A stretch of 64,000 nucleotides of DNA. Source: Nitrosopumilus sp. (GTDB taxonomy: Archaea > Thermoproteota > Nitrososphaeria > Nitrososphaerales > Nitrosopumilaceae). Numbering within the stretch: position 1 is the stretch's first letter; every line of letters starts with the position of its first letter. A program made the translations under genes and the position numbers. Shown piece by piece: positions 13,485-60,015 of the stretch. Location of the stretch: NCBI GenBank assembly GCA_965224195.1, contig OZ245040.1, positions 1,984,001 through 2,048,000 on the forward strand. Direction: 5' to 3'. Under the pieces are notes generated by a model. The model was not told the origin of the DNA and did not search any database. It saw only the letters and a list, made by a program, of their open reading frames with translations.

Positions 13485-14954
13485 ATGAAGATAAAAACTG
13501 AAAGTTCTGCAAAAAAGAAAACGAGTCTTCTATGTGGATTTGTACTAGAAAGTTCTAACAAAGTTCTAGGATTACCAAAATTTGACACTAAAACTGCATC
13601 GGCAATTAATCAATCTCTAAAAGATATGGAAGGAAAATTAGGTAAACTTAGCATTATTCCAATACCTGGAAAACCTATACAAAGAATCCTGCTTGCAGGT
13701 ATAGGGAAAAAAGAGAATCTAACAAAAGATACTATTAGATTTACATCAGGAAAAATTGCTCAAAAAGCAAGAGAGTTAAAATTATCTGAATTTTCAATTA
13801 TATCACCACCAAGTTTTGTAACAGACCCAATTTCTGCAGTGTCTCAGATCATCGAAGGAACAAAAATGGCTCTTTACAAATTTGAAAAATTCAAGACTGA
13901 AAAAATTGAAACTTCACCAAATCTCACCATCATTGTTTCAAAATCAAACAAAATTTCAAAAGCTGTCAAAATAGCTGAGATTGTTGCAGATGGTGCGATA
14001 TTTACTAAAAGCATTGCCAATTTACCTCCAAACGAATGTACTCCTACAACATTAGCAAATTTTGCAAAAAGTATGTCAAAGAAAAATAAAATGAAATGTA
14101 ATATCATTTCAGAACCTGAACTAAAGAAAAAAGGCTTTGGTGGAATTTCAGCAGTAGGTAAAGGAAGTACCAATCAACCAAAATTAATTATTCTAGAACA
14201 TAGTCGCGGTAGAAAAAATGACAAACCGATTGTCCTTGTAGGAAAAGCAGTGACATTTGATACAGGCGGCATTTCATTAAAACCAGGGGCAGCAATGGAT
14301 GAGATGAAATTTGACAAATGTGGCGGATGTACAGTTTTAGGGATAATGAAATCTATTTCAGAGTTAAAACTACCAATCAATGTTGTAGGTATTGTTCCTT
14401 CAGTTGAAAATATGCCAAGTGGAGAAGCATACAGACCAGGAGATATTTTAAAATTGTACAGTGGAAAAACAGCTGAAATTCTAAATACAGATGCTGAGGG
14501 AAGATTGATTTTAGCTGATGCATTATCGTATGGAGAAAAACATTATTCTCCAAAAGCAATCATTGATTTTGCTACTCTTACAGGTGCATGTATTGTAGCA
14601 CTTGGAACTAATGTAGCAGCAATTGTATCAAATGATGAAAAACTAACAAAGAAAATCAATGATTCTTCCAAAAGAACAACTGAAGAAGTTTGGGAATTAC
14701 CATTGAATCAAGACTATATGGATATGATAAAATCAGATGTTGCAGATATGAAAAATGTTGGAATTGGAAGAGCAGCTGGAACAATCACCGCAGCCGCATT
14801 TTTGAAAAATGCAATTGAAAAAACACCATGGACACATATTGATATTGCAGGAGTTGCATGGACACAAGGAGCTACAAAAGAAAAATCATACAATCCAAAA
14901 GGCGCTACAGGTTTTGGTGTAAGATTAATTTTAGATTATTTACAAAATTTGTAA
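13485..14954 (+). CDS. pepA: Leucyl aminopeptidase (M17)
   Basis: GKAVTFDTGG, MKFDKCG, NTDAEGRL, ATLTGA. Confidence 0.96.
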   Translation: MKIKTESSAKKKTSLLCGFVLESSNKVLGLPKFDTKTASAINQSLKDMEGKLGKLSIIPIPGKPIQRILLAGIGKKENLTKDTIRFTSGKIAQKARELKLSEFSIISPPSFVTDPISAVSQIIEGTKMALYKFEKFKTEKIETSPNLTIIVSKSNKISKAVKIAEIVADGAIFTKSIANLPPNECTPTTLANFAKSMSKKNKMKCNIISEPELKKKGFGGISAVGKGSTNQPKLIILEHSRGRKNDKPIVLVGKAVTFDTGGISLKPGAAMDEMKFDKCGGCTVLGIMKSISELKLPINVVGIVPSVENMPSGEAYRPGDILKLYSGKTAEILNTDAEGRLILADALSYGEKHYSPKAIIDFATLTGACIVALGTNVAAIVSNDEKLTKKINDSSKRTTEEVWELPLNQDYMDMIKSDVADMKNVGIGRAAGTITAAAFLKNAIEKTPWTHIDIAGVAWTQGATKEKSYNPKGATGFGVRLILDYLQNL

Positions 14955-43988: not shown

Positions 43989-44705
43989 CTATGCATTAAT
44001 CCTATCCCTACCACCTTTGGCAGTTCTAAAAACATTCATTCCAATAAAGAAATTTTCATGTAAAGATTCTAAGTAAATAATTTCATTCTCTGTTTCTTTA
44101 ATTTCTTTTTTAGTTACATCAGGGTTATTTTTTAATTGTTCAAGTTTTTGTTTGGTTTCTTCTAAAAATGAATCAACAGCACGTTCATAATTTGAAACAC
44201 CAGCAAATTCTGGACTAAGAACATGTTCAGGAACATAAGCAGGAGTATGATCATGATATACCTCTGCTTGTCTAGTGAGGGATTCTTGTTCATCTGCTGA
44301 AAGAATTGGTCGTGGGAAACGATCTGCTTTATCTAACCAAAATTCAGGTTCACCCATATCTCGTCTAAAAATTTCTTCGCCTTGCCTCTTGAATGTATGA
44401 TCTGATTTTACAGCTGCATCTGCTTTTACTTCAGCTGCAATTGCTTTGTATTCTTCTTCAGCTGCTGATTCTGCATCTGCTTTAGCTGCTTCTGCTTTGG
44501 CAAGAGCTTCTTTTACTGCTAGTTCTGCTTCCTCAACTGCTTTTACAGCTGCTTCTGCTTTAACAATTGCAGCTTCTGATACTTTAGATTCTTCTGCTGC
44601 CTTAGATTCTAGTTTTGCAGTTTCATCCGTAGTTGTATTTTCAGATGAAGAATCTTCAGTAGTTTTTGCATCCACTTTAGATTCTTTTTTCTCTTCAGAC
44701 AACAA
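43989..44705 (-). CDS. Hypothetical protein with Ala/Glu/Lys-rich N-terminal coiled coil
   Basis: 238-aa ORF. Confidence 0.7.
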   Translation of the reverse strand: MLSEEKKESKVDAKTTEDSSSENTTTDETAKLESKAAEESKVSEAAIVKAEAAVKAVEEAELAVKEALAKAEAAKADAESAAEEEYKAIAAEVKADAAVKSDHTFKRQGEEIFRRDMGEPEFWLDKADRFPRPILSADEQESLTRQAEVYHDHTPAYVPEHVLSPEFAGVSNYERAVDSFLEETKQKLEQLKNNPDVTKKEIKETENEIIYLESLHENFFIGMNVFRTAKGGRDRINA

Positions 44706-44838
44706 ATTTTACTAAAATTGCCTGAATTTTAATATTCTTGTGAGATTCATCGACAGTCCATTCCTTTTTCAATAATATTTTCTAGAAATTTAATTCTGAT
44801 CGATGTAAATGATATCAAAATGTAAAAAATAGAAATAA

Positions 44839-44859
44839 TGGCGCCCTCGGCGGGATTTG
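44839..44859 (-). repeat. att site: duplicated tRNA-Asp 3' end including CCA
   Basis: GCGCCCTCGGCGGGATTTG at 44841-44859 identical to 57921-57939. Confidence 0.92.
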
Positions 44860-45081
44860 TGAGATCAGTTTGACCACCTCACAGACTTGGGTGTGAACTT
44901 TGATGAATTTAACCACAAAATTTTAGTTCAAATTCAAAGAAATTTTGTTATACAGAATTAACTGATTTTAGATTTTGATGTGACTACGGTTCAAATTTAC
45001 CTCTACCATAAATAACACGGGGAATATAGGTACGACTTAACATTTTGTATTATTTTAGAGGAATTTTCGTTCTAGGAGTAG

Positions 45082-45189
45082 GATCTGCTTGAGTGGACAG
45101 AGACTCAAATTGAGACATCCAGATTTACAAACTATTCTCATGCCATACAGTACTCTGTAAGGCAATTAAAAGAAAGTGGAGAAGAGTAG
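45082..45189 (+). pseudogene. Ribbon-helix-helix protein remnant
   Basis: DLLEWTETQIETSRFTNYSHAIQYSVRQL, preceded by in-frame TAG. Confidence 0.5.
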
Positions 45190-45262
45190 AAACTCAAAAG
45201 TTTGGATTTAACAAAACAAATTTTCAATTAATGTTATTAACTTAAGAATTTATAATATATCA

Positions 45263-45841
45263 GTGGAAGAGATAAAAGAAGATAGTAAGACTTTTGATAA
45301 AATCAAGGTTTTTTATTCAGAAGATGACAAATTGAAGATTTTCGGCGAGTTGTTAAGTAACAAATCAAGTAGAGACATCATTAAGTTCTTGATTGAAAAG
45401 GAGAGGTATACAAATGAGATTGCAAAAAAATTAGAGATTAGACCAAATTTAGTAATACATCATCTAAAAAAGATGGAAGAATTAGGATTATTAGAAATTA
45501 CAGAAAAAAAAATTTCTAAAAATGGTAATAAACATAAATTTTACAAAATGATTCCAAATGTGTTCATTTCTCCAAATTATTCAAAACAAGAGTTTGAAAA
45601 GAAAGTAATGTTTAAGAAAATTTTCAAACAAGGATTAAAGTTTGCAACAATTGGATTAGTGGCTAGTGCGGTTTGGATGGCTGATGTAGTAAAGTTAACA
45701 AATACCAAAGAAATTTATCCTGTTCCATTTGGAACTCAAACTCAACAATTAGATCCGTTAATTCCAGCTTTAATTATAATAATTATTGGTTTAGTTCTAG
45801 AGAGAATTTTTAGTTTAAAAAAAAAGAAAAAAAGGGGTTAG
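45263..45841 (+). CDS. ArsR-like wHTH regulator with C-terminal membrane anchor
   Basis: LSNKSSRDII...EIAKKL...HHLKKMEELGLL; two hydrophobic segments and a poly-Lys tail. Confidence 0.8.
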   Translation: MEEIKEDSKTFDKIKVFYSEDDKLKIFGELLSNKSSRDIIKFLIEKERYTNEIAKKLEIRPNLVIHHLKKMEELGLLEITEKKISKNGNKHKFYKMIPNVFISPNYSKQEFEKKVMFKKIFKQGLKFATIGLVASAVWMADVVKLTNTKEIYPVPFGTQTQQLDPLIPALIIIIIGLVLERIFSLKKKKKRG

Positions 45842-46794
45842 TTGTTGTTGAACATTTCAACATCTGATTGATCAACTACTGTTGTGGTTTGCCCACAGAA
45901 AGAACCTTGAGAACCAGTGGCACTGAAATTATCAGTATCTCCAGTATGGTATATTGGATCGAAATTTAGATCACCCTGTAGCTCATTACAGTCACTATGT
46001 AGATCATAGGTTTCAACTGCAACTAATCCTACTTTCATTGTAGTAGATGAATATACAATGTATGAGTCATTAGCTGCTGAATAATCATAGTTTTTCATAG
46101 ATATTGTCCAATAGTTATTAGATTCACTAATTGTTCCTCTAAGTCTATCATCATAATCTGCATCTTCACAAGGAGTTCCCCAAGCATTTCCACCTACATA
46201 GACTAGGGCATAAGTTACCCAATCATCACCAGCATCACAATAGGAGCTATATCCATGTTGTAATACAGGTTGCAAGATAATACTTGATGAACCAGTTGGC
46301 TGAATTGCTGGGAATGAGAAATTAGTTCCACCATCAAAATCTGTTGGTGCATCTGGTACATTTCAATATGCTCTTAGATATGAAAAATCATTGTTTGCAC
46401 TGCTTTTGTGTGCAACTTGATTGTATCCATCACCAGCTTCTGCTAATGGAATAGTGAATAGATTCGTTAATGTTTGAATCCAATCAAATGACGTTTTGAT
46501 AGTTTCTGATTTTTCTGCTTTTTCTATCATAGCATCGAGGTCTAATACTTTCTCTTTTGTTTCAGGATGATCTCTGTAGATAGGCTCCATTTGCTTTATT
46601 TCACTTGGTTTAACCCATCCGACACCAGGATACAGTTTGTAGCCTGCTGCTAGTTTTAGATCTCTTTCTTCGTTTGGTATTGTTAAACTATCAATAACTT
46701 TTTCTGCTTGTGCTGTCTGCATTCCAGAGAATGAGGCAAACAAAGCAATTGTTAAAGAAGCAAACAATACTGTTTTGATTGTTTTTGATGTCAT
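45838..46794 (-). pseudogene. Secreted protein, possibly glutamic-peptidase (G1)-like, split by a TGA at 46363-46365
   Basis: ORFs 46363..46806 and 45838..46275 share a frame; readthrough gives YLRAY*NVPDAP...FPAIQP...ILQPVLQ. Confidence 0.7.
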
Positions 46795-46824
46795 TGATAT
46801 ACACAAAACTATTATGTTAATAAA

Positions 46825-46852
46825 AATTAGTTCAATTTGGATTGAACTAATT
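46825..46852. promoter_or_regulatory. Perfect 12-bp inverted repeat AATTAGTTCAAT-N4-ATTGAACTAATT
   Basis: Directly upstream of the minus-strand TTTATTAA box of the secreted-protein gene. Confidence 0.6.
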
Positions 46853-47124
46853 CTTTAGTAATAATATAATATATCATCGTATGATTAACTGTACAACGAA
46901 GAACATAGAAAATCCAATTGGAAGAATTATCAAAAGTCTAGTTTTCAATTACTCAAGCTAAAATTATAAGGTTCATAAGTACTTCAAATCTTTAACTTCT
47001 TCAAAGGAATTTGAAGAGTTAGTTTAACATCCTACAAGATCAAACCCAGTAGAGTTTAAACAATGTGGAACTGTTGAGTTCCACATTTTTGATAGTTCTT
47101 AAAAATCAAAAATGGTGTAAACAA

Positions 47125-47190
47125 ATGTCTAGAACCGTTTCTGCACGCATATCTACAAAAATGCATAATGAATTAAGAGAAAGATTCTAG
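47125..47190 (+). pseudogene. Truncated ribbon-helix-helix gene
   Basis: MSRTVSARISTKMHNELRERF*. Confidence 0.4.
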
Positions 47191-47265
47191 GAATATTGTA
47201 AAGAATATGTGATTTACTAAGAGAATTTTATGATCTTTTATTATTGATAGTTACAAAATATCATC

Positions 47266-47367
47266 ATGAATACTGCACCAATTTGGTCTAGCCCAAAGTG
47301 TTCTGATTGTAAAAGAATTAGATGCAGTAAGGGGTGTAACTGTGATTGTCATTGGAATAGAAGATAA
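47266..47367 (+). CDS. 33-aa Cys-rich peptide
   Basis: MNTAPIWSSPKCSDCKRIRCSKGCNCDCHWNRR*. Confidence 0.5.
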   Translation: MNTAPIWSSPKCSDCKRIRCSKGCNCDCHWNRR

Positions 47368-47910
47368 CCCATACCATTCTATCAAAAGTTACTGCAGAAA
47401 GGGTTCGAAAATTCTCAAAGTCAGTTACTAACAAACTATCAAAATTTCAATAATCCTAACTATGATTATTGGGAACATCCACGCACAAAATAATCATTAT
47501 TGTTGTAGATTTGTAAAACATCAACAATTATTCCACAACATCACTCCACGCATGGAACTCTGTGGATGCGGTGTTTTTGTAAACTTCCATGCGTGGTGAC
47601 CATTAACTTCCATGCGTGGAAAGTGTGTTTTGATGTGTTATGAGTTGACGTTTTATTGTTGACGTTTACAACAGTTGATGTCAACACTATCCAAACGTCC
47701 ACGCGTGGACATATTTTCATCTTTTGTTGTAGTTTTCCAATAATCCTAAATCTCATAATTAGGATTATTGTGGATTAGATGGATGATACAATAGATCTAA
47801 CTCTTATCCATTCTGTCAATAATTACTGCAGAAAGGGTTCGAAAAATTTCAAAGTCAGGCACAACTAAAATATCATATTTCCAATAATCATAACTAGGAT
47901 TATTGGAAAT
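47356..47910. repeat. Two about 120-bp imperfect direct repeats ending in palindromes and enclosing short repeated motifs
   Basis: TTACTGCAGAAAGGGTTCGAAAA exact at 47389 and 47823; CAATAATC..GATTATTG palindromes at 47448, 47738 and 47882. Confidence 0.85.
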
Positions 47911-47970
47911 TGAGTATTTCTGGTATATCTTAATCTTGAAAATTTTTGAGGCTTTTCTGTAGAAAAAAAA

Positions 47971-48102
47971 TTATTGAGATACAAATGTTTGACAAGTGCA
48001 CTCTGAACCATCAGATAGAGTTTTGGAACATTTGCCCTCTGATGGATGGTCTTTTCTATAATGTGGACAACTGGTGTTACCACATTCGTCATAATCTCCC
48101 AT
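47971..48102 (-). CDS. 43-aa Cys/His-rich zinc-binding peptide
   Basis: MGDYDECGNTSCPHYRKDHPSEGKCSKTLSDGSECTCQTFVSQ*. Confidence 0.55.
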   Translation of the reverse strand: MGDYDECGNTSCPHYRKDHPSEGKCSKTLSDGSECTCQTFVSQ

Positions 48103-48212
48103 AATTATACAACAAATTTAATATATTTAATTTTGATCTTGCAATAATAGTCAAGTCATAATCAACATAATATCACTAAATAGTTTGTAACAAAATACAA
48201 TCGATTCTTTTT

Positions 48213-49172
48213 TTGGTTAGATCGCTACAAAATCTGATATTGTCAGATAATACAAACATTCATGAGAAAAGCGATAGAGAGGTCTTGATGGTATTATTTG
48301 AAGACCTGCAATCAATCAAAGAGAAACTAGGAATAGAAGAAAAACGATTTACTGCAATAACGAATTATGAAGGTACAATATCCCACTATGAGGAATTTGC
48401 CAAATCTGAACTAAATCTGAATTCGGGTACAATAAAGAACCATGTAGGTGCTTTAAGAAAATTCTTGGAATTCTGCAATGGTAACATCACAGAAGATATG
48501 GTAAAAAATTATCTTGATTCAATGGAACAATCAAGCCAAACAAACCAACTCAAAGTACTAAGACGATTCATTAGAGATTATCTAAAACTAGGCAACTGGA
48601 TAAACGAGATATCATTCAAGACACAGAAAACCAAACTAAAAACTCAGAAACTACCAAACAATGAAGAACTATCCACATTTTGTACAGAACTTGAAACATT
48701 GCAGATGCAGCTAGTATTTTTTATTTGCTTTAATTCTGGTTTGAGGGTAAATGAGACGTTACAGATAGAGACAGACAAGATGGATTATTCATTAAACTGT
48801 ATTGATGTATCAGAGGTTCACACAGGTGATACAAAATCATCATGGTTTGGATTCTTTACAACTCAAACAGCAGAGTATCTTGAGAATTACACAAGTAACA
48901 ATTATCTTGATGGCAAGATATTTGATGTAACATATGACCAGGTGTATGCAGAATTCAAGAGAGTAAGTGCGATTACAGGGATAGAACTAACACCAAAATC
49001 ACTAAGAATGATTTTTGTTGAGAGATGTATTGATGCCAAAATTGATAAAAATGTGATTGATATTTTTGAGGGTTGAATCCCTAAAGGTGTCCAGTCTAAA
49101 ATTTATCGTAATTATTCACCTGAGAGATTAAAAGAACATTACAATAAAGTTGAAGAATTATTGATTTTGTAA
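48213..49172 (+). pseudogene. Second tyrosine recombinase with premature TGA at 49074-49076
   Basis: SGLRVNE, TK, PKSLR; after the stop IPKGVQSKIYRNYSPERLKEHY carries the probable catalytic Tyr. Confidence 0.85.
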
Positions 49173-49345
49173 GTCAATCTTAAAAAAAAATATCATATTG
49201 AACAATCTAATTAGATTCATGAATTGATAAAAAGACATATTGATTTACTTTTTTAATTATCATCTTAGAATGGATTAGAATTTAACTAATAGTCAACACC
49301 TTGTAAAATTATAACAAATAAACTATAATCATGTAATAGTATTAG

Positions 49346-50212
49346 ATGAAAATAAGAAATAGTATTTTACATCATCCTTTTGCTACAATGATTGCCTTAC
49401 CCATCATGGAATTTGCAATAATTTGGGGTATTTTATTTCAACCATCTTCTTCAGATATTTCTGAATATCAAATAGAAATAACAAATGCAATAATCACCTC
49501 ACTGATAATTGTTTTTTGTGTTTTGATATTGTCACTTTTTGGCTCGAAAGTAATTGGTAAAACAATTGAAGTAATTTATGAGAAATTAAAGTCAAAAGAT
49601 TTTATCATGACTTTTGATTCTTATCGATATGCATATCCAATTTATTTTATTTTTCTTATAATATTGAGTATGATTATTGTAATCAATTCGAATGTAAATA
49701 ATATTCAATTAGAAGATAGAATTAAATTATTTATTATTTTTCTATGGATGCATTGCATGGGTACAGTTATGATACATTCCAATAGACATACTACATTACT
49801 CTTACAAAATAAAAAAAACTGGTTTTTGGCAAAAGCCAATTTTGAACTAACAAAAAATGCAAAGACTGAGAATAACAAGTTACGTTATTTCACTAGAGCA
49901 TTGTTAGAACTAGATAATTTTTATAAAAAAAATTGTGGCTTACAAATCAAAATAAAAATGAAAAACATGATAACAAATGATTTTGTAAAAAATATTGAGC
50001 ATAGTGAAACAATGAAAAAATATCAAACAATATTTGATTGTGAGAAAATATCTTGTTTGCGAATGCAACTACAAAATAATTTTACTAAAAAAGAAGAATG
50101 TTTTGCAGCACATCAACCACAACCAAATTATCAAAAAATTTCAATAGTAATTGCATTATTTTTGTTAGGGATAGTGGGAAGTAAATTTTTGATTGATTTT
50201 ATATTTATATAA
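49346..50212 (+). CDS. Low-GC multi-TM cargo protein of unknown function
   Basis: 288-aa ORF with about 5 hydrophobic segments. Confidence 0.65.
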   Translation: MKIRNSILHHPFATMIALPIMEFAIIWGILFQPSSSDISEYQIEITNAIITSLIIVFCVLILSLFGSKVIGKTIEVIYEKLKSKDFIMTFDSYRYAYPIYFIFLIILSMIIVINSNVNNIQLEDRIKLFIIFLWMHCMGTVMIHSNRHTTLLLQNKKNWFLAKANFELTKNAKTENNKLRYFTRALLELDNFYKKNCGLQIKIKMKNMITNDFVKNIEHSETMKKYQTIFDCEKISCLRMQLQNNFTKKEECFAAHQPQPNYQKISIVIALFLLGIVGSKFLIDFIFI

Positions 50213-50240
50213 AAAAGATGTGTGTAGATAATAAAAAAAT

Positions 50241-50575
50241 CTACTTTGCTAACACTGTTTGTTTTTTCATCAGTTCTATTCTATTGACGTTGATTGTATA
50301 CTTGTCACGTCCATAAGGCTCAGGTAGTATTGGTATATGTTGACCTACCATCTTTATCGTGTCATTTCCAAATTTGTCAATCAGTGAATTTTTTGACTGT
50401 TTGTTGAGTGTCCATACTCCTATGGTCTCTTTTTTGTCATTACACTGGACTCTTGTCTTTACAGTACTACCAAACCCGTTATCAGGCATCTTTGGCTCCT
50501 CAAGAATGATTAATTTTGTGATGCGATTCTCTTTTACAAAATCACCGTCTAGTTCTCTATCTAATTCTATTTCAT
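50241..50575 (-). pseudogene. Small mobile-element protein (possibly OB-fold/SSB-like), start apparently frameshifted
   Basis: WTLNKQSKNSLIDKFGNDT..MVG motif; frame extends upstream to IELDRELDGDFVK, one base off ATG 50575. Confidence 0.45.
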
Positions 50576-51524
50576 TTCACCCCCTCTTATGTCACACAAG
50601 TCACATACGATATGGTGTAATTCAGGATCATTATCATGCATATTCTTTAGAGAATATGGCAAGATTCCCTTTTTGTAGACCTCTTTGAGTTTGTAATTAA
50701 TTAATTGTCCAGATACAGAGTTTCCAAAATAATCTAAAAGTATTTTTTCACATTCTTGTAACGTTAATTTTTTTACATTAACCAAGTATGGACATAGAAC
50801 TAGAGCAAATATTCTTTTTTTATCATCAGTGATTTTGTTTTGTAGGATTTTTTCAATGTATTTTATTTTACCTTGATTAGTAAAATTTCCATTATACCTT
50901 TGTTGTTCTAGTTTATGCAAGTGTGCTAAAAATGGCAGATTATTTACTTGTGGTCTAATGCCATTCCATTCAGAATAATTTTAACCTGTGATTCTTCTTT
51001 TGATTTTCCATATAACAATGATTTTTTGTTGTATGAATATGGCACTCTAATCATACAGGATTTTAAACTTGGATGATTTGCACCATCACATTTTGAATTT
51101 GATAGATATCTTTCTGCAAACTGTAAGAATTTTTTAGAATATCAAAGATTTGTTTTTGGTGTAGTGTTGTATTTGTAAATGAAATTATATCTATTGGTTG
51201 AATTACTGCATAACCATTACCAGTGTCTAGAACCAGAGGTATACCGTTAATCTCTTTGTGAAATAGTGCTAATGTTTCATTTAGTGCTGTCTTATCATCT
51301 AGATCTACAAATATCAAATTAGGTTTTTCTTGATTAATTTCCTCTAGTCCAAAAGCGGATAATCTGCAATCTATTAGATTAGATTTTACAAAAAATTCTA
51401 GTGCTTCTGCTTTAGAGTAAACTTGTACCTGTTTGTTTTCTGTAGCTAGTGTTGATACGGTTCTTGGGAATTTGCTCTCAAAATGATTCAAGAGGTAATC
51501 TAACCCATATTCTATATCTATCAA
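50567..51524 (-). pseudogene. AEP primase domain fused to a PriX-like domain, two frameshifts
   Basis: IFVDLDD, TGNGY, MIRVPYSYN (alternative frame), YIEKILQ...LCPYLVNVKKL. Confidence 0.7.
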
Positions 51525-53739
51525 GATTTAGTCCTCGCCTCTTTTTGGTCAAAATATTGAATAGAATGACCTAGTTTTTTATGGAAATTTAATATGCTCT
51601 CTTTGTTTATTCCTCTCTCATCAATTCCAAATTCACCAGCATTACAGGTTGTACATTTGAAATGAGTGTATTTCTTAGATCTATTATCTGACGAATTTTT
51701 ATCATTTTTTGTGACTGATTTTTTATTTTTTATTTTTTTATCAGAGGTAGGCAAAGTGCACGTGTCAGACGTGTCAGCGTGCCAACCCTCTTTTTTGTGA
51801 CTAGATTTACTATTTTGTGACACGTGCATACTATTTTTCTTTGATTTATCCGTGTCAGTAGACGTGTCAGTCTTTGAGGATTTTTTATCATTTTTGTCTG
51901 ATTTGTTAGGTGACACGTTGACACGTGCACCATTTTTCGTAGACGTGTCAATATTTGGGTCATTTTGTGCCTGATTTTCACTAGTGACACGTTGACACGT
52001 TGACACGTCTACTTTACTTTCTAATCTGGATTGATTAGGTGTGCTAGAAGCTATTTTCAGAATCAATGAGCCACGCTTGAATTTATTATCCCTTGAATTG
52101 TATCTGTGACTTGAAATTAGATATCCAGAATTTCTAAATGATTCACTGAATCGGGTTAGTTGGCCAGATAGTTTTGATTTTGTTTTTGGAAATCTTGAAA
52201 GTCTGGATTTACGATCTATGTTTTTACTATCTGCAACTTGTACAGACTGGTTATAAAGTTCATCAATTGTAATATCAAAAGGTGTTTTTTTATTCTTAAA
52301 TAAATCTAAAACAATGTCAATTATAGGCCATGTATCAGATGCACCTAGAGAATTAGAATCTAGATTTTGTTTGTATGCTTCAAGAAATTCAAAGTTATCA
52401 AATCCCAAACTTCTAGAAATACATTCACCAAAAACTATAAAATCTGCCATTCTTTCCTTAGATGTTATTTCTTTTTTTACACCATCAAAAATATTCAATG
52501 TGTTTGATAGAGTGTTAAAACATTGGTCTAACAAATATGGGACTAGTGAATTTATTTTTTTATCAAACTCTTCTTCTGTAAGTCTTTCATTTTTTGGAAT
52601 GTATTTGGTTTCATAAAAAACAGACCTCTGCATTAAATCTGGGTATTCTATATTTGGTGTATCCCATTTAGAATAATTCTTGTCTGAATTTTTAGTATAA
52701 TTTCTTTTGAATCTTGATATAACTCTCTTTTGATATGTGTGTGTCCTGTAACTGCACGGCATAGATTATCACTAACTTCATGGTCAAAATAAGAAATATT
52801 ATCAAAGTTTGACAGATATCTATTATACAGATGAATATTCAAATCATCAATCTTTTTTGGCATGCTTGCTAAATTCTCAGGGCTTGGGTCAATGATTTTT
52901 TTGATCGTGCTAGTCGTCGTACTCTTAGAACTGCCTTGCTCACCATGAAAAATCATGACTGGTATTGGATAGGATTCTAAGAATAATGATACTAGATGGA
53001 CTTTGAATAATAATTTATTCTGCTGTTGTATTTTTAATAGATTGCATAGTTCGTCTAGAGGATTTTTTGATTTTGATTTTTTTGGTTTGACCTGTTCTAA
53101 TGGACTTGATTTTCTTCTAAATAGAGGGGTATTGTGGTCTATCTTCTCTATTGAATAGCCGTTTTTGGTAATTTTCACTAGTTCGTATTTATCATTACAT
53201 AAATCATAAAAAATCTCATTCTCTAGAAAAGCAACTCTACTGAAGATATTCTCAATTTTAATCTCATTTACTATAGAATGAGATGTAATAACAGATAATG
53301 CAGTTTTGTATAATTCATCACTAAATATTTCACCTGTTGCAGATTCGTAAACTGATTTAATCCATTGTACAGAATCCCATGAGCCAACCTCTATGGTTTT
53401 GTAATGGTTGTTTATCTTAACTAGCGCATATACTCTGTTATGGTCTCCTGCACTTCTAACTTTTTTTATTATTTGTGATTGCGCAAAATCATAAACTTGT
53501 CTAACATTGTTTGCATTATTATCATCATCTTTTGAGATTTTAGATTTTTCATATTCTGGATTATCTTGTTTGGAATTAAATTTTTTCCATTTACATTTTC
53601 CTAAATACTTGTTTTTCTCAATGTGTTCTAGTTGCACTTTAGAACCCTTAATCATGGAGCCTTGTTTCTCGTGTTTTAGATTTGTACAGATTATCAGATT
53701 ATCATCAGGGTTTTTCTTATCTGATTTTTTGACTACCAC
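51521..53739 (-). pseudogene. P-loop ATPase / putative replicative helicase, frameshifted near 52660
   Basis: GEQGSSKS Walker A, FDN, RELY, ILNGI then PDLMQRS in the next frame; RMADF. Confidence 0.75.
51761..52007. repeat. Cluster of 11 TGACACG/CGTGTCA heptamers, candidate replication origin
   Basis: Exact copies at 51761, 51770, 51818, 51851, 51863, 51911, 51919, 51944, 51985, 51993, 52001. Confidence 0.8.
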
Positions 53740-53966
53740 TAAACTTCAACTCCAGAAAAATCAGACAATACATCTACAAACCATAAAGGATTACGATGGT
53801 CATTTACAAAGTCAATCAGTCCTAGTGAAAATGCGGTTTCTTGTTTTTCCTTATAACCGTGGTCATATCTTAGATGCCTCTTTATCTGTGAAAGGTCAGA
53901 TGTGACAGGTTTTGTATGAAATTTGCATCCAAAAACAGGGCATATGCGTGGTATTATGAGGCTCAA
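53739..53966 (-). CDS. Small C2H2-type zinc-finger protein
   Basis: CPVFGC...RHLRYDH. Confidence 0.6.
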   Translation of the reverse strand: MSLIIPRICPVFGCKFHTKPVTSDLSQIKRHLRYDHGYKEKQETAFSLGLIDFVNDHRNPLWFVDVLSDFSGVEV

Positions 53967-54115
53967 ATAGAGTCACCTGTGGATTTGTGATGTTGTGTAA
54001 TATGGTATCTTAGGGCATATTGAGAGACAAATCGTTTAGATCTGCCTTTGATTTTTTTACATATATGACAAAGAATTAGATTAGAATGCTTTTTTGGTGA
54101 GATAATCTTACTCAT
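53963..54115 (-). CDS. 50-aa C2H2-type zinc-finger protein
   Basis: LCHICKK...ALRYHITQHH; overlaps next gene by 4 bp. Confidence 0.55.
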   Translation of the reverse strand: MSKIISPKKHSNLILCHICKKIKGRSKRFVSQYALRYHITQHHKSTGDSI

Positions 54116-54163
54116 AATATACACTTCCTAAGATGGGATTTGTAAAACTTGAAAGAAAGTCCG

Positions 54164-54517
54164 TCAAAACATATCTTTCAAGTATTTTTTTAATTTTATA
54201 ATAAAAAATAGAGTTTCTAATATCACTGAAAGCAATACTAGAACTCTATGGTGTAGGTTTGTTGAACCATTACAGTTGCACTCAACATGTTTCACAATTT
54301 CATCAGTTCTGTATCTAGATTCTCTAGCAGATGAGATATTATCTCCACTGAGAAATTGATTGAAAAAAATAATGATACCTGTAACAGTATCATTATTTTG
54401 GTGTAGGAGTTGCCCATTCATTTCTACAAGTTTGCAAATTTGTCTAAGATGTTTCTGAATTTTCAGCATCTGAGATTTCTCTCTTATTACAAATTGAACT
54501 AATGAGTTAGAATTCAA
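54164..54517 (-). CDS. Hypothetical element protein
   Basis: 117-aa ORF co-oriented in leftward operon. Confidence 0.4.
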   Translation of the reverse strand: MNSNSLVQFVIREKSQMLKIQKHLRQICKLVEMNGQLLHQNNDTVTGIIIFFNQFLSGDNISSARESRYRTDEIVKHVECNCNGSTNLHHRVLVLLSVILETLFFIIKLKKYLKDMF

Positions 54518-54528
54518 GAGTTATCCTC

Positions 54529-54717
54529 TTATGATTTTTGTTTGATTTCTTTTCTAAGTACAGTTAGGTTTTTTCTTGAAAGTTGTACTAGCTGTTTTAG
54601 ATTGTATTGTTGGTTTTGTTTTTTGTAGTGTAGAATAATGGATGTTATGATTTCTGATTTGTAGATTCCAATTTCTTGTATGATTTTCTTTTCATATACA
54701 GTAAGTTGAAGATTCAA
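54529..54717 (-). CDS. Hypothetical element protein
   Basis: 62-aa ORF co-oriented in leftward operon. Confidence 0.4.
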   Translation of the reverse strand: MNLQLTVYEKKIIQEIGIYKSEIITSIILHYKKQNQQYNLKQLVQLSRKNLTVLRKEIKQKS

Positions 54718-55043
54718 TTTTGTAAAACCTCTTCTTTAATTTTAGTTTCAGAAATGAATCCATCAAAATCAGGGTCATGTTTACAAGAATCACAAACTAA
54801 GAATTCATATCAAGAATCATTCAAAATACCTACAAGTTTAATTTTTTCTGTTTTATGTTCACATGTTCTGTGTATGATCGAACTCATTATTTTGAACCGC
54901 CTTTGGAATTTAGATAAAAGTTCAAAATAATATCAAACTGTTCTACTTGAGATCTTTTTTCAGTTTTACATACAGAATCAAATTTTTTCTTTGCTTTTGG
55001 TCGTATGTTTATACCATCATAAGATTTTATTTCTACCAATATT

Positions 55044-55059
55044 TACATACTAGTATGTA
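55044..55059. promoter_or_regulatory. Perfect 16-bp palindrome TACATACTAGTATGTA, candidate operator
   Basis: Between a TATA-like run (55061-55070) and the first TTG (55039) of the leftward operon. Confidence 0.55.
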
Positions 55060-55481
55060 GTATTATATATCTGTAGTCCTACCAAAATTTACTTAACACA
55101 AACATTAACAAAAGTCTCAATATGTAAATATATGTAGATTTTAGATCATAAAATATGGGAAATAGAGATAATTGGTCATATATCCAAATGCCCAAAACAG
55201 TGTTTGAAGAAGTTGAAAAAATGTTAAAATCTGAAGAATTCACAAAAATAGGAATTTTTAAACCTAAAGATATTGCTCTTATTCTATTTAGAGATTTCAT
55301 AGAAAATGGTTCAAGCATATTAGACATCACATCAAAAGTAAAAAGATTACAAATTGAAGTAGATACAACAAACAATATACTATACATGATAACTCAAAAT
55401 AAACTAGATAGGAAAAAATTTGAAAACATAAACCATGAACAAACAATAGACAAGGAAACTATTCTAAATGATGATAATATC

Positions 55482-56473
55482 TACTTTGTCGAACAAATAA
55501 CAATCTGATCAACTTTATTTCATAACAATAGCTTTGGATCTCACATTCTGACCATTCTCATGGTTAACTGGAATCAATACAATGAAAAACTAGTCAGAAG
55601 AGGCGAGATCATAATGTCATTTGATGCTATTGATAACTGGCATAAAGAATTAGAGGTCATGAATCACAACAAAAGAGGTAGAAAGTTTGACTATCCTGAT
55701 TCATTCATGAAATTATTGGGTTATGCTAGAATCTATTTTGGATTACCATTCAGACAAACAGAAGGAATGATACGTGCATATTGTAATAGAGTTCCAGCAG
55801 TTCCTGATTTCACATCAATCCACAAGAGAATAAACAAGCTTGACATCAAAACTGATGATTCCATTGGAGATAATAATGAAATCATTTTGGCAATTGACAG
55901 CACAGGAATCAAGGTTGCAAACAGGGGCGAATGGATGAGACAGAAATGGCACATGAGGAGAGGATTTCTAAAAATCCATGTTGGTGCCGATGTCAAATCA
56001 AAGAAAATAGTTTCACTGAAAATAACAGATGATTCATCCCATGATGCTGCACATCTGCCAGAACTGGTACAGCAGGCATCACAGAAAGGAAATGTAATCA
56101 AGGTTCTAGCTGATGGCGCATATGATTCAGAAAACAACTTCTCATATCTATATCACAACACAGATGCACTGCCTGCAATCAAAGTTAGAAAGACATCATC
56201 TCTCAAAACAAAATGTTATCCGAGAAAGAAATCAGTCTTGGCTCAAATGTATAATTTGGATTTGTGGAAGCGCAGCGTCAGCTATGGGGACAGGTGGATT
56301 GTAGAGTGTGTGTTTTCAACATTCAAAAGGATGTTTGGTGAGTATGTCATGGCTCACAAAAGAAAATACATGGCAAAGGAATTAAAATTAAAAGTCGAGC
56401 TGTACAATCTGTTTGCAGGTGCTTGAGGGAATGAAATCAAAAACTAGTTAGAAATGATTTGTTCGACAGAGTA
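55482..56473 (+). mobile_element. IS5-family element, copy 2 (intact, 992 bp)
   Basis: 17-bp TIRs TACT(T/C)TGTCGAACAAAT; 8-bp TSD ATAATATC at 55474-55481 and 56474-56481. Confidence 0.95.
55560..56426 (+). CDS. IS5-family DDE transposase (IS903/ISH1-like)
   Basis: NWNQYNEKLVRRG, AIDSTG, ADGAYD, RWIVECVFS. Confidence 0.93.
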   Translation: MVNWNQYNEKLVRRGEIIMSFDAIDNWHKELEVMNHNKRGRKFDYPDSFMKLLGYARIYFGLPFRQTEGMIRAYCNRVPAVPDFTSIHKRINKLDIKTDDSIGDNNEIILAIDSTGIKVANRGEWMRQKWHMRRGFLKIHVGADVKSKKIVSLKITDDSSHDAAHLPELVQQASQKGNVIKVLADGAYDSENNFSYLYHNTDALPAIKVRKTSSLKTKCYPRKKSVLAQMYNLDLWKRSVSYGDRWIVECVFSTFKRMFGEYVMAHKRKYMAKELKLKVELYNLFAGA

Positions 56474-56609
56474 ATAATATCAATAAACAAGTTAAAATTA
56501 TTCACAAGGACAACATACCATATTGTACACATGATAAAACTAACAATTGCATTCATACGTATTATATGATAATACTATCTAAATTAATTAATTTAAAAAA
56601 AATGAAAGA

Positions 56610-57878
56610 TTAATTTTCATTATACTTCTTAAGTAATCTAATTTCTCTTTTCATTTCATTAAATTCTTTTTCTGATTCTTCTTCTAAGTTTTTCATTCTT
56701 TCTTGTAGTAATTCTTTTTCTTCTCGTTCTTTCTCTTCTAATTCCATTGCAGTTTGAAGGTCTAAAGGTTTTCCACATTTTGAACAAGAATTAGATTCAG
56801 GTGGATTTGGCATTTCACAAATATTACAAATCTTTGGTGCTTTTGGTTTATCTTCATTATTAGATTCAATTCCAAAATGTTTCAAGATAGCGTTATCGAC
56901 ATCAGAGTCTGTCAGATGAGTATATCTATCAGGCATCTTTGAATCACCTACCCAGCCATGTCTTTTCGTCATTTGTGCTTGAGTCATATAATTAGCGGCT
57001 TTAGTTGCTGCACTATGTCTAAATAAAGTAAAATGTATTTTTTTGGTAAATCCAGGATGTTTTCTTTGAGCATTTTTAGCAGATCTAATCAATACCTGAC
57101 GTGCAGCAGAATAAGTCAAAGGTTTTCCATAATTATTTTTTGTAAGTTGTGGCCATAATGGAGCATCAGAATTATTTTTGAGAGGATGATTATTCATCCA
57201 TAATGCTAATTTTGGTGCAGCCTCAATAATTCTAATTGGTCTTTGACCTGTTTTACCATCCACCTTTAAAATAAATCCATATTTGTCTTGTGATACATGT
57301 TTGATTTTTAAATTCAAAATTTCACCAGCCCTAGAACCTGCATCTATTGCACAATCAATTAATGCTTCATTTCTTGGATTTCTATTACATCCATCCAAAA
57401 GTTTCAATCTATCATCAGAAGTCAAAAGATCTTCTCTAGTCAAAGAATTTGAAACTTTTTTTATTTTGATGTCTTTGGTCTCTATTGGATCACCAACACT
57501 ATCTTTACTTCTACTTCCAAGTTTCAACCATCTAAAAAATATCTTTAAAACTTTTTTATGATCATGACTTGAATGGGTCTCTTTACCTCTTGGGTCTGAA
57601 TAAGTATCTACAATATTTTTTACTAGTTTTGCAATATCAAATTTTGTTACATCATTCCAATTTTTTTCTAACATTCTACTCAAATTCAATAAAGTTTGAA
57701 TATGCTTATGTCTACCAGCCTTAGAAATTTGTTCTTGAATCATAACCATATCATAATTAGTGATTAAATCTAAGTTTTCTGCACTAAATTCTTTTTTTAT
57801 CAAATTGTATGTAGATTTAATTCTACGATCATAATCATAAATTGAAAAACTATCTGATTGTGATGTTCTTTGTTTCAA
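56610..57878 (-). CDS. Tyrosine integrase with C-terminal zinc ribbon
   Basis: GSRAGE, DGKTG, LFRHS, RHGW, DRY; CNICE...CSKCG; begins next to the tRNA-Asp 3' end. Confidence 0.92.
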   Translation of the reverse strand: MKQRTSQSDSFSIYDYDRRIKSTYNLIKKEFSAENLDLITNYDMVMIQEQISKAGRHKHIQTLLNLSRMLEKNWNDVTKFDIAKLVKNIVDTYSDPRGKETHSSHDHKKVLKIFFRWLKLGSRSKDSVGDPIETKDIKIKKVSNSLTREDLLTSDDRLKLLDGCNRNPRNEALIDCAIDAGSRAGEILNLKIKHVSQDKYGFILKVDGKTGQRPIRIIEAAPKLALWMNNHPLKNNSDAPLWPQLTKNNYGKPLTYSAARQVLIRSAKNAQRKHPGFTKKIHFTLFRHSAATKAANYMTQAQMTKRHGWVGDSKMPDRYTHLTDSDVDNAILKHFGIESNNEDKPKAPKICNICEMPNPPESNSCSKCGKPLDLQTAMELEEKEREEKELLQERMKNLEEESEKEFNEMKREIRLLKKYNEN

Positions 57879-57921
57879 TGAGTAGTGTAGGTAAAAATAG
57901 GGATTTAAACAAGATTATGAG

Positions 57922-57996
57922 CGCCCTCGGCGGGATTTGAACACGCGTCTCAGCCGTGACAGGGCCGAATTCTAGACCGGGCTATACTACAAGGGC
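57922..57996 (-). tRNA. tRNA-Asp(GTC), integration target
   Basis: CGGCC-CTGTCAC-GGCTG anticodon arm; 3' end duplicated at 44841. Confidence 0.93.
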
Positions 57997-58092
57997 ACAA
58001 ATTGTTAGAGTCAAAATGCCAGATTAAAAGTTTCTGTCACAACAAAATCTTTTGTAAAAGACTAAATTATACAATTAAGGCATTTTTTACGA

Positions 58093-58166
58093 GGGTCTAT
58101 GGCGCAGCCAGGTAGCGCACCGGACTTTTAATCCGGTTGTCAAGGGTCCGAATCCCTTTAGACCCG
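58093..58166 (+). tRNA. tRNA-Lys(TTT)
   Basis: GGGTCTA...CCGGA-CTTTTAA-TCCGG...TAGACCCG. Confidence 0.9.
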
Positions 58167-58184
58167 CTCTCTATTCTTTATTTA

Positions 58185-59642
58185 CTAAATTACTGCTTTA
58201 ACTTGCTTTTTCAAATCATCAATTGCAGCATTAATTTTGTTTTCTCTTTGTAACACATTAGATCTGTACTGATTAATTTTTTGAGTTCTATCAGAAATCA
58301 TTCTTTTTTGTTCATCATATCCTGAAGAACCAAAAGACTTTCTGTCCTTAAGAGATGAAACAACGGTAGTAGAAGATATGATTTTTAAGACAATCTTATG
58401 GTCAACTTTTGTGTCAGCCACAGATTTTTTAATTTCAGACAAGGTTAATTTTGAAATAGGTTTTTTTGAATCATATGCCAGTTGAACTAGTATTCCTGAA
58501 ATTTTATGGATCACTCTAAACGGAATTCCTTCTTGAACTAATTTTTCAGCAATGTCTAATGCAATTAGATTACTTGACTCTGTAACTTTTTTCATTTGTT
58601 TCTCATTTACTTTCAAAGTTAGAAGAATTGATTTTAAAATTAATAATGCACTGATAGAAATTTTTGATGTAGACCAGATAGATGATTTAATTTGTTGTAA
58701 ATCTCGCCCATATCCAGATGCCAATCCTTTAACAGTTGTTAAAATTGCAGTTAGATTTCCAATGACTTCTGCTGTTTTACCTCGTGTAAGTTCTAAAATA
58801 TCAGGATTCTTTTTTTGAGGCATCACACTAGATGGAGATGTAAATTCATCTGATAGTTCAATAAATGAAAATTCAGAAGTAGACCAAATTACAAAATCTT
58901 CAGAAATTTTACTAAGATTAGTCATCAAGATAGAAATCATTGCCACATATTCTGCTACAAAATCCCTGGTACTTGTTGCATCAATTGAATTTTCAACCAA
59001 ACCATCAAAGCCCAACATCTTTGCAGTGCTATGTCTATCAATAGGAATACTTGTTCCTCCAACAGGACCTGCTCCAAGTGGACTTTGGTTTATTCGTTCA
59101 AACGTTCCAAATAATCTTTCAAAATCTCGTGTCAAAACATCAGCATGTGCTAAAAGATAATGAGAAAAAAGACCTGCTTGTGCTTGTTGAAGATGAGTGT
59201 ATAGTGGCATGATTGTTTTTTGGTGGTTTTTAGCCACGGATACAAGGGCTTCAATGGTATCTAAAAGACAATTACAAATGATGTTGATATCGTCTCTTAT
59301 TTTCATTCGAATATCTAAAACAACTTGATCATTTCGAGATCTTGCCGTATGCATTTTTCCTCCACTGGCCATTCCAGCTTTTTTTATCACCAATGTTTCA
59401 ATTAGCTCATGAATATCTTCTGCGCCTGATGAAGCATCAAATTTTTTATTTTTCAAACTCTCTAAAGCAGTCAAAATTTTTTTGACATCATTATTTGTTA
59501 TGATATTTTGTTGAAATAACATCAAAGCGTGAGCTTGGCTTCCAAGAATATCATAAAGTGCAATTTCAGAATCATCATTAATTGATGAAACATAATCCAA
59601 AGTGATATCACTCAAATCAGTACCAAGACGTGAACGATACAT
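58185..59642 (-). CDS. argH: Argininosuccinate lyase
   Basis: HTARSRNDQ, YTHLQ, SSVMPQKKNPD. Confidence 0.96.
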   Translation of the reverse strand: MYRSRLGTDLSDITLDYVSSINDDSEIALYDILGSQAHALMLFQQNIITNNDVKKILTALESLKNKKFDASSGAEDIHELIETLVIKKAGMASGGKMHTARSRNDQVVLDIRMKIRDDINIICNCLLDTIEALVSVAKNHQKTIMPLYTHLQQAQAGLFSHYLLAHADVLTRDFERLFGTFERINQSPLGAGPVGGTSIPIDRHSTAKMLGFDGLVENSIDATSTRDFVAEYVAMISILMTNLSKISEDFVIWSTSEFSFIELSDEFTSPSSVMPQKKNPDILELTRGKTAEVIGNLTAILTTVKGLASGYGRDLQQIKSSIWSTSKISISALLILKSILLTLKVNEKQMKKVTESSNLIALDIAEKLVQEGIPFRVIHKISGILVQLAYDSKKPISKLTLSEIKKSVADTKVDHKIVLKIISSTTVVSSLKDRKSFGSSGYDEQKRMISDRTQKINQYRSNVLQRENKINAAIDDLKKQVKAVI

Positions 59643-59691
59643 TACCTAAGGTTCTATAATGGTTATATATAGCAACGATGGTTTTCACGAC

Positions 59692-60015
59692 ATGAGCCAA
59701 GATATCAAACTGATGCGAGTTAAAATATTTGATGAGCTATCAAAGATTGTAGATCCAGAAATTAACACATCAATTGTAGAACTAGAATTAATTGATGAAG
59801 TTGATATCAACGACAGTAATGTCAAAGTGGATTTACATCTTACCAGTCCGTTCTGTCCAGCAGTATTTGGTTTTAAGATTTGTCAAGATGTACATGATAA
59901 TCTTTTGAAAGTAGATGGTGTAAAAGATGTTAAAGTTAATGTCTCAAATCACTTTATGGCTGAACAGATTAACAATCAAGTAAACAATAGCCCAAATCCA
60001 AAAAAATTAGGTTAA
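59692..60015 (+). CDS. DUF59/SufT metal-sulfur cluster assembly factor
   Basis: DPEINTSIVELELI, LTSPFCP. Confidence 0.88.
   Translation: MSQDIKLMRVKIFDELSKIVDPEINTSIVELELIDEVDINDSNVKVDLHLTSPFCPAVFGFKICQDVHDNLLKVDGVKDVKVNVSNHFMAEQINNQVNNSPNPKKLG

Follow-up and report, generated by a model that had tools for sequence, protein, structure and literature searches.

Dif-like palindromes linked to an XerA-like recombinase in integrated elements of ammonia-oxidising archaea: probable sites of resolution and cassette exchange

Palindromes that lie in and between two long direct repeats upstream of a broken tyrosine recombinase gene, Rec2, in a 64,000-nt stretch of a Nitrosopumilus sp. genome (contig OZ245040.1, positions 1,984,001 to 2,048,000; hereafter the window) are probably dif-like core sites of that recombinase, used for resolution and for the capture and exchange of cassettes, and the copy in the window would be a fossil of such a system. 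The DNA of related elements shows directly that the sites exist, that they are linked to Rec2 and vary along with it, and that they lie at the borders of gene modules. More tentatively, these ammonia-oxidising archaea (AOA) may harbour a family of small plasmid-like integrating elements in which the second, Xer-like recombinase runs an "addressed" cassette platform, where dif-like sites stand in order, different centres serve as addresses and each slot gains, loses or exchanges unrelated genes independently of its neighbours; the window would then hold a dead copy with one filled slot.

The sites belong to a 13.1-kb element that is integrated at a tRNA-Asp gene and bracketed by exact 19-nt copies of that gene's 3' end (Table 1). 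Inward from the tRNA, the element carries Int1, an IS transposase, unannotated ORFs, a PriX-type primase gene, a membrane protein gene and Rec2. Beyond Rec2 follow a 1.4-kb non-coding stretch with repeats, in which the sites lie upstream of the recombinase gene, and then a few small genes until attL. The element is decaying, as seen from the TGA in Rec2, the frameshifted primase gene and the inserted IS. Two ORFs of 413 and 363 aa beside the primase gene (51521-53739) have no match in Pfam, NCBIfam or PHROG and are without counterpart in the element of the related genome G038.

Table 1. Coordinates of the integrated element and of the repeats, palindromes and genes around its sites (positions in the window).
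Feature	Position	Strand	Remarks
attL: 19-nt exact copy of tRNA-Asp 3' end	44841..44859	.	100% identity with 57921-57939; left border of the element
Cys-rich small ORF, 33 aa, MNTAPIW..CSDCKR..CSKGCNCDCHW	47268..47367	+	3' end overlaps start of left repeat
DR-L, left long direct repeat, closing in left palindrome	47356..47475	+	repeat search (47374-47475)
N8-L, left dif-like site: TTTCAATAATC-CTAACTAT-GATTATTGGGA	47442..47478	.	core 47448-47471
Element-specific iterons: 4x TCCAYGCRTGGA + 2x GTTGACGTTT (47644, 47658)	47545..47709	.	
12-9-12 palindrome (N17 type), CAATAATCCTAA-N9-TTAGGATTATTG	47738..47770	.	conserved in close relatives
DR-R, right long direct repeat, closing in right palindrome	47790..47910	+	repeat search (47808-47909)
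N8-R, right dif-like site, perfect 13-8-13	47877..47910	.	central TAACTA as in N8-L
Cys-rich ORF, 43 aa, between sites and Rec2	47971..48102	-	DNA 76% identical to G254 stretch
Rec2, XerA-like tyrosine recombinase	48213..49172	+	in-frame TGA 49074-49076 at invariant Arg, 10 codons before catalytic Tyr
PriX-containing primase gene, frameshifted	50600..51506	-	three pieces in different frames, against 322-aa G038 protein
IS transposase (DDE_Tnp_1), inserted in element	55560..56426	+	domain search
Int1, integrase of the element adjoining tRNA-Asp	56610..57878	-	
tRNA-Asp	57921..57996	-	3' 19 nt (57921-57939) = attR

An earlier note on this DNA had described two imperfect direct repeats of about 120 bp, each ending in a palindrome, together with a perfect 13-8-13 site on the right and a variant with 12-bp arms, and all of this is borne out by the sequence. 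The repeats align without gaps over 102 nt (47374-47475 and 47808-47909) with 83% identity and a spacing of 434, and by eye they reach about 47356 and 47790 with one indel included. The left palindrome reads CAATAATC-CTAACTAT-GATTATTG (47448-47471, an 8-8-8 core), and the third palindrome is a perfect 12-9-12. The 23-nt exact core to which the note had drawn attention does occur in both repeats (47389-47411 and 47823-47845), and these are its sole two matches in the window at up to 3 mismatches. By our own arithmetic, however, about 0.2 exact runs of 23 are expected in a 102-nt repeat at 83% identity, and therefore this "core" is not clearly above chance. A tRNA-like reading of GGGTTCGAA within it was rejected, since the tRNA search gave no call there.

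Searched with up to 2 mismatches, the pattern CAATAATC-N8-GATTATTG has three matches in the window against 0.05 expected, a count that 0 of 100 shuffles reached. The third match (49488, 1 mismatch) falls inside a coding frame, and in the 2.07-Mb genome the exact pattern occurs at the two N8 sites only. These share the centre TAACTA and stand in direct order around a 434-bp unit that bears iterons, with the inner arm bases swapped between them (CC/CA and CA/CC). Their geometry is that of Xer/dif-type sites, with arms of about 11-13 bp and a centre of 6-8 bp (13-8-13 in N8-R, the 8-8-8 core in N8-L); the 12-9-12 sites lie outside it, their 9-bp centre exceeding the 6-8 bp usual for the cores of tyrosine recombinases. 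The clustered repeats between the sites are specific to the locus. The palindrome TCCAYGCRTGGA is found four times (47545, 47586, 47609, 47698) against 0.32 expected, all three of its exact copies in the genome fall at the site locus, and the two copies of GTTGACGTTT between the long repeats are likewise confined to it. As a host origin box or a mimic of a chromosomal repeat, TCCAYGCRTGGA was rejected on account of the lack of exact copies elsewhere in the genome.

Read through its stop codon, Rec2 passes the cut-off of PF00589, the tyrosine recombinase superfamily (30.0 bits against 27.1, E=5.3e-7; 31.3 bits for the G038 homologue). Its nearest solved relative is XerA of P. abyssi (4a8e, E=5e-14, both domains), with which the catalytic R, R and Y of the Rec2 family align, and no sequence match to Cre was found at E up to 0.01. 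The loxP geometry proposed in the earlier note thus holds as a resemblance of the 13-8-13 site, whereas the protein is XerA-like and not Cre-like. With the XerA equivalog model of NCBIfam, NF040815, the Rec2 family scores 70-93 bits, below the cut-off of 220, and with the integron-integrase model TIGR02249 it scores 19-34 bits, below the cut-off of 265; the structure of IntI4 is matched with E=6.5e-4 over 64 residues only. Residues R175, K205, R262, R285 and Y295/Y298 are invariant in nine homologues, and Y295 of the intact homologues aligns with Y261 of XerA, of which the Y261F mutant is inactive according to the available portions of two reports (PMC2958812; PMC3646895). In the window, the TGA sits at the codon of the invariant R285, so that the catalytic Tyr is lost and the catalytic set is incomplete; no variant at the TGA was found in the contigs of two runs or in raw reads. 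With a TGA before the catalytic Tyr, no Rec2 activity is expected in this genome. Rec2 is, to judge from its gene, a dead enzyme here, and, as it cannot be active, nothing in this genome tests the recombination model. A string, GATTCTTTTTTTGGTTAGA, is conserved at or just before the start of Rec2 in four loci (window 48190-48215, G038, G177 and G274). In the distant homologue L066, the open frame is 318 codons long, and no start codon of the ATG, GTG or TTG kind precedes codon 155.

Homologues of Rec2 are found in 24 of 301 genomes of the host family at E up to 1e-3, a tally that includes G000 and the unpublished G206, and in the loci annotated they always lie inside integrated elements. The named records with homologues are all from Nitrososphaerota except for one haloarchaeal match of 30% identity, and a search of viral contigs found no relative of Rec2. 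A close clade comprises the window, G038, G291a, G291c, G177, G274 and the metagenome contig L109, its members being 53-74% identical to Rec2 or to the homologue in G038. The earlier note had attributed the palindromes to the recombinase at 48213, and the comparison agrees with it, as all seven close loci keep CAATAATC-type sites upstream of Rec2. In two of them, G038 and G291a, Rec2 is intact and the palindrome is present upstream; thus, the co-occurrence holds for intact genes. Common to all seven, the layout upstream of the gene consists of one CAATAATCC-N6-xGATTATTG site, followed by repeats and then by zero, one or two 12-9-12 sites. The repeats between the sites differ entirely from element to element, ranging from palindromic iterons to tandem arrays of 22 nt and 14 nt, and the intervening DNA of one locus is unrelated to that of the others. 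The G038 element is syntenic overall with that of the window (Int1, primase, Rec2 and sites in equal order), and two recombinases are therefore a regular feature of these elements. In the recombinase tree, the close clade sits on a long branch (1.18), and its layout is distinctive, with upstream sites, extra 12-9-12 sites and iterons between them.

The arms of the close-clade sites bear on a further proposal of the earlier note, in which the two main sites of the window are reciprocal hybrids of two perfect palindromes. One such parent, a CC/CC site with a TAACTA centre, exists in G177 and L109, but no CA/CA site was found among the loci compared, and G038 and G291 have a single site in the asymmetric CC-arm/CA-arm form of N8-L. 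Only the window has the long flanking repeat; an extended site, made up of the core and a conserved flank, was rejected as a feature of the family, with flanks at least 55% alike over 60 nt in 1 of 116 site pairs from 15 arrays. Partial tRNA copies serving as att sites were not found within the 18-kb loci of G038, G291a and G177. In G291 (C1), a block made up of a tRNA, an N8 site, tandem repeats, a pair of 12-9-12 sites and Rec2 is present in two inverted copies at a distance of about 35 kb (around 557800-559700 and 593500-595100; L060 and L062). The second Rec2 copy is cut by IS transposases, and the numbers of tandem-repeat units between the sites differ between the copies.

Distant homologues, with 37-48% identity, have the same inner core, TAATC-N7/8-GATTA, within other outer arms (CGTAATC, GGGTAATC, TCATAATC). 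In 26 related loci, TAATC and GATTA are separated by 8 nt in 38 cases, by 7 nt in 14 and by 17 nt in nine, the last in the close clade only, and no other spacer from 0 to 30 is seen more than 5 times. In the 25 genome loci, 48 sites fall within 418 kb, where shuffled sequence gives 3.5 (at most 8). Because the pattern was broadened once some of these loci had been inspected, the 80 metagenome loci provide a fair, out-of-sample test. Here 91 sites lie downstream of the gene (124.5 kb in all), 7 lie upstream (180 kb; in 3 loci) and none lies inside it, with near-duplicate contigs (e.g., L115/L116 and L177/L182) counted in these tallies. Among the 44 metagenome loci with at least 400 nt of downstream DNA, a site is present in 34, within 400 nt in 31; the strict site is absent from 10 of these 44 and from 6 of the 23 genome loci with enough downstream DNA. 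Several homologue loci that duplicate DNA already sampled were left unpooled. The motif does not behave as a widespread generic site, a possibility raised in the earlier note, as its exact form is confined to the locus and the background of its own genome is at control level (15 sites per 2.07 Mb, or about 7 per Mb, against 10-16 for control patterns).

The outer arms also follow the enzyme. On a tree of 82 recombinases with 48 rows, 15 changes in the arm class of the nearest site are counted, whereas 300 label shuffles give 30.3 on average and never fewer than 25. This co-variation supports direct recognition of the arms by the recombinase; co-inheritance could also explain it, and direct recognition is not proven by it, because kin share labels. 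The link between Rec2 and the sites is well supported by the comparison of these loci.

In the distant clades, the sites form arrays. Five long loci follow a common plan of host genes, Int1, a wHTH gene or small ORFs, a replication gene, Rec2, the site array and again host genes, in which the replication gene is of D5/DUF5906 or PriX type, with unannotated large ORFs in two loci, and the array runs through the cargo region downstream of Rec2. Arrays consist of 2-7 sites between genes and have a dedicated Xer-like gene at the head of each. In 17 genome loci, 41 of 41 sites are intergenic. When classified by gene orientation, which depends on ORFs of at least 70 aa, 24 of 39 sites separate convergent gene ends, 7 separate divergent starts and 8 lie where both neighbouring genes point the same way. 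The cargo comprises cupredoxin, NHL/MopE, TSP3, FG-GAP and β-propeller proteins, redoxin, P-II and HxlR, as well as sensor kinases, a methyltransferase, Mrr and an AAA ATPase, and 35 of the 54 cargo ORFs have no Pfam match.

Homology breakpoints and empty or filled slots coincide with these sites. For example, L083 and L085, contigs of one MAG, have identical sequence (100%) for 968 nt downstream of the gene and part ways 13 nt beyond the centre of a site, and between L114 and L157 homology resumes at the first base of a site; four further homologies begin or end 7-33 nt from a site. The centres recur as ordered types (TAGTACCA, TGTAGTTA, TTACTATG and CTATACAA; in another clade TTACTAG, TATACAG, TCTACAG and ATTAGAG), and CTATACAA comes last in all eight downstream arrays that hold it. 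Slots with equal site types contain unrelated DNA, with no tblastx match in 19 of 20 pairs. A slot that is empty in L142 is filled in L137 and L162 (0.7-0.9 kb), and at the far end of the filled slots the same site persists in decayed form. In L085, two direct CTATACAA sites surround 3 kb, and identical sites in inverse order flank segments in L079 (S3/S4), L114 (S2/S5) and L115 (S2/S4 and S1/S5). Two arm types, GGGTAATC and GTATAATC, are found inside one array. Also in L115, the sites at 14425 and 20119 have reverse-complementary centres (TTACTAT and ATAGTAA) and inverted flanks that are 75% alike; the 5.7 kb between them, with four cassettes, are a candidate invertible segment. Pairs of sites with different centres, 15-25 nt apart, occur in L081 (+1942/+1967 and +4788/+4812 nt after the recombinase) and in L162 (+935/+950 and +1178/+1203), and may mark empty slots or junctions of two types of site.

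In the proposed mechanism, a dif-like core site is made up of inverted 11-13-bp arms ending in TAATC and a centre of 6-8 bp, and would be recognised by the adjoining Rec2. Rec2 is the second recombinase of a small plasmid-like element, whose integration into tRNA-Asp would be carried out by a different enzyme, Int1. Each site would be bound by Rec2 dimers, and sites with equal centres would synapse and exchange strands within the centre. In the circular form of the element, multimers would be resolved at the site beside the iteron region, a putative origin. A resolution site beside the origin is a common plasmid layout, and for this element the origin is best sought in the iterons between the sites. 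DNA segments bounded by such sites would be inserted, excised or swapped. Binding, strand exchange and their outcome constitute the proposed part of this account. For the window, the presence of two TAACTA sites in direct order around a 434-bp unit would be expected after capture of a circle or, by an alternative route, after formation of a cointegrate and subsequent deletion. The CC/CA and CA/CC arms would be the expected remnant of a circle with a CA/CA site that integrated into a CC/CC site, and the flanking repeat of 83% identity, which starts at the 3' end of the Cys-rich ORF, would fit a cointegrate of two related elements followed by deletion. Because the lone site of G038 and G291 has the CC/CA form, the asymmetry alone is no mark of recent exchange, and it may simply be ancestral. 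With Rec2 dead, the primase gene frameshifted and an IS landed, the arrangement in the window would now be frozen.

A role in capture or excision of the intervening unit, as suggested in the earlier note, gains from the wider family, in which the sites behave like recombination joints bounding cassettes, and loses from the window enzyme, which lacks its catalytic Tyr. The evidence for cassettes was gathered in distant clades and may not apply to the close clade. Reads lacking the 434-bp unit, which the note had proposed to look for, did not turn up. In four runs on 46300-49300, with 91 raw reads at a depth of about 1-8, no read or contig showed a joint, an indel or the loss of the unit, in a test of low power in which contigs hide rare forms. 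Such reads are not expected, because Rec2 is dead.

The palindromes could instead be operators for the wHTH or RHH factor of the element, or for Rec2 acting as a repressor only, and would then set the expression of Rec2 and its neighbours with no strand exchange. Palindromic sites suit this role, and the elements also encode wHTH proteins, which can in principle bind palindromes. The spacing of the 12-9-12 sites is odd for a recombination core; in G291a, G274 and L109 one such site stops short of the Rec2 start by about 60-100 nt, and two keep a 43-nt phase in G038 and G291. An operator role is possible for the 12-9-12 sites specifically. As an account of the palindromes in general it is unlikely, given that the majority of the classified sites lie between convergent gene ends, that the G038 sites lie at the tail of an ORF 830 nt from Rec2, that the centres are conserved and recur as types, and that breakpoints of homology and slots coincide with the sites. 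Rather improbable, too, is that 47.36-47.91 kb form a replication origin or partition site in which the iterons bind Rep and the palindromes are origin-boundary elements rather than recombination sites. The iterons are unique to the site locus, each close relative has iterons or tandem repeats of its own at the equivalent place, in distant loci, too, short repeats occupy the interval from Rec2 to the first site, and a primase or helicase module always adjoins. However, the palindromes are conserved and the iterons are not, and most sites of the distant clades lie kilobases from the repeat region, among cargo genes. For the iterons themselves, an origin is compatible with the preferred reading of the palindromes as dif-like sites, as it would place the origin beside a resolution site.

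A further explanation would make the palindromes transcribed 3' hairpins of upstream genes, either terminators or RNA-stability elements. Many sites begin 0-60 nt after a stop codon, and the arms vary yet stay complementary, as hairpins would. Pairing alone, however, would require neither the invariant TAATC/GATTA core nor the fixed spacer of 7-8, and the sites between divergent starts and the linkage of the sites to one recombinase family also argue against hairpins, as does Rfam, which returned only two tRNAs above threshold in 44000-60000. Hairpins are thus a highly improbable explanation.

Among known systems, the dif-like sites and Rec2 would in function be most like the pdif modules of Acinetobacter, and more loosely integrons; by their defining features, they are none of pdif modules, integrons or chromosomal XerA/dif. 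The pdif modules rely on chromosomal XerC/D, whereas Rec2 arrays are headed by a dedicated Xer-like gene. In both, short dif-like sites with inverted arms and a 6-8-bp centre bound modules of one or two genes on plasmid-like replicons, and some modules are flanked by inversely oriented identical sites (here in L079, L114 and L115). Three reports, in their available portions, describe the pdif modules of Acinetobacter plasmids as XerC/XerD-dependent (PMC11705084; PMC12907356; PMC9947245). Unlike these modules, the Rec2 arrays are found in archaea, in integrated elements and with many site types recurring in equal order, and their recombination is putative. XerA is the archaeal chromosome-dimer resolvase, with one copy in most genomes. 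As far as the available portions of the P. abyssi reports go, archaeal XerA/dif resembles the Rec2 system in its single recombinase, inverted arms of about 11 bp and short spacer, and the dif sites of Thermococcales do not adjoin xerA (PMC2958812; PMC3646895). Conversely, Rec2 is not the chromosomal enzyme, being found inside mobile elements of 24 of the 301 family genomes, and its loci carry many sites beside the gene.

In integrons, too, a tyrosine recombinase heads a series of cassettes of accessory genes, each followed by a recombination site, and the cargo is diverse and mostly unannotated, as here. The attC sites of integrons are long imperfect palindromes, and the cassettes lie in one orientation behind a common promoter. 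By contrast, the sites of the Rec2 family are near-perfect palindromes of 24-34 bp, cassettes in Rec2 arrays lie in both orientations with site types in set order, and Rec2 is not an integrase of IntI type as defined by TIGR02249. Plasmid multimer-resolution pairs with the site beside the gene include Cre/loxP of P1, ResD/rfsF of F and XerS/difSL. Like these, Rec2 is the second recombinase of its replicon, with a simple core site near its own gene and the replication region, and N8-R has the 13-8-13 geometry of loxP; the extra 12-9-12 sites and, in relatives, the whole site arrays set it apart. Thaumarchaeal elements of this kind are treated, in the available portion of one study, as "cryptic integrated elements" with integrases of the XerC/D family (PMC6563490). 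No account of the sites or arrays was found in the available portions of the literature, including PMC6563490 and PMC8371274, and the supplementary tables of the former may list relatives.

Should Rec2 be active on these sites, the ammonia-oxidising archaea, which have a key part in nitrogen cycling, would own a modular platform for gene exchange, which would help to explain the shuffling of accessory genes among integrated elements. The cargo at stake includes surface repeat proteins, P-II, sensor kinases, redoxins and restriction or defence genes. The pair would be simple, made up of an enzyme of about 315 aa and a site of about 30 bp with several mutually exclusive centres, and could seed genetic tools for organisms that are currently without any. 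An addressed platform, if real, would be a natural counterpart of cassette exchange with heterospecific lox sites and an archaeal analogue of integrons and pdif modules. For annotation, TAATC-N7/8-GATTA marks the cargo borders of this family of elements.

Two minor observations concern the DNA to the left of the sites. A Cys-rich peptide of 33-40 aa (MNTAPxW..CSDCKR..C.KGCNCDCHW) is encoded with 70-86% DNA identity in the window (47268-47367) and in loci L010-L028, with two copies in some genomes. A DNA query that includes this ORF has matches in 120 of the 301 family genomes (unpublished genomes included), and the part with the Cys-rich ORF accounts for most of them. This ORF was rejected as a regular partner of the sites, TAATC-N7/8-GATTA sites being near only 4 of its 19 copies. 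Further left, at 47125-47190, the short frame MSRTVSARISTKMHNELRERF stops at a TAG and seemingly continues in frame (EYCKEYVIY); by eye it resembles the start of a ribbon-helix-helix protein, which would be cut by the stop.
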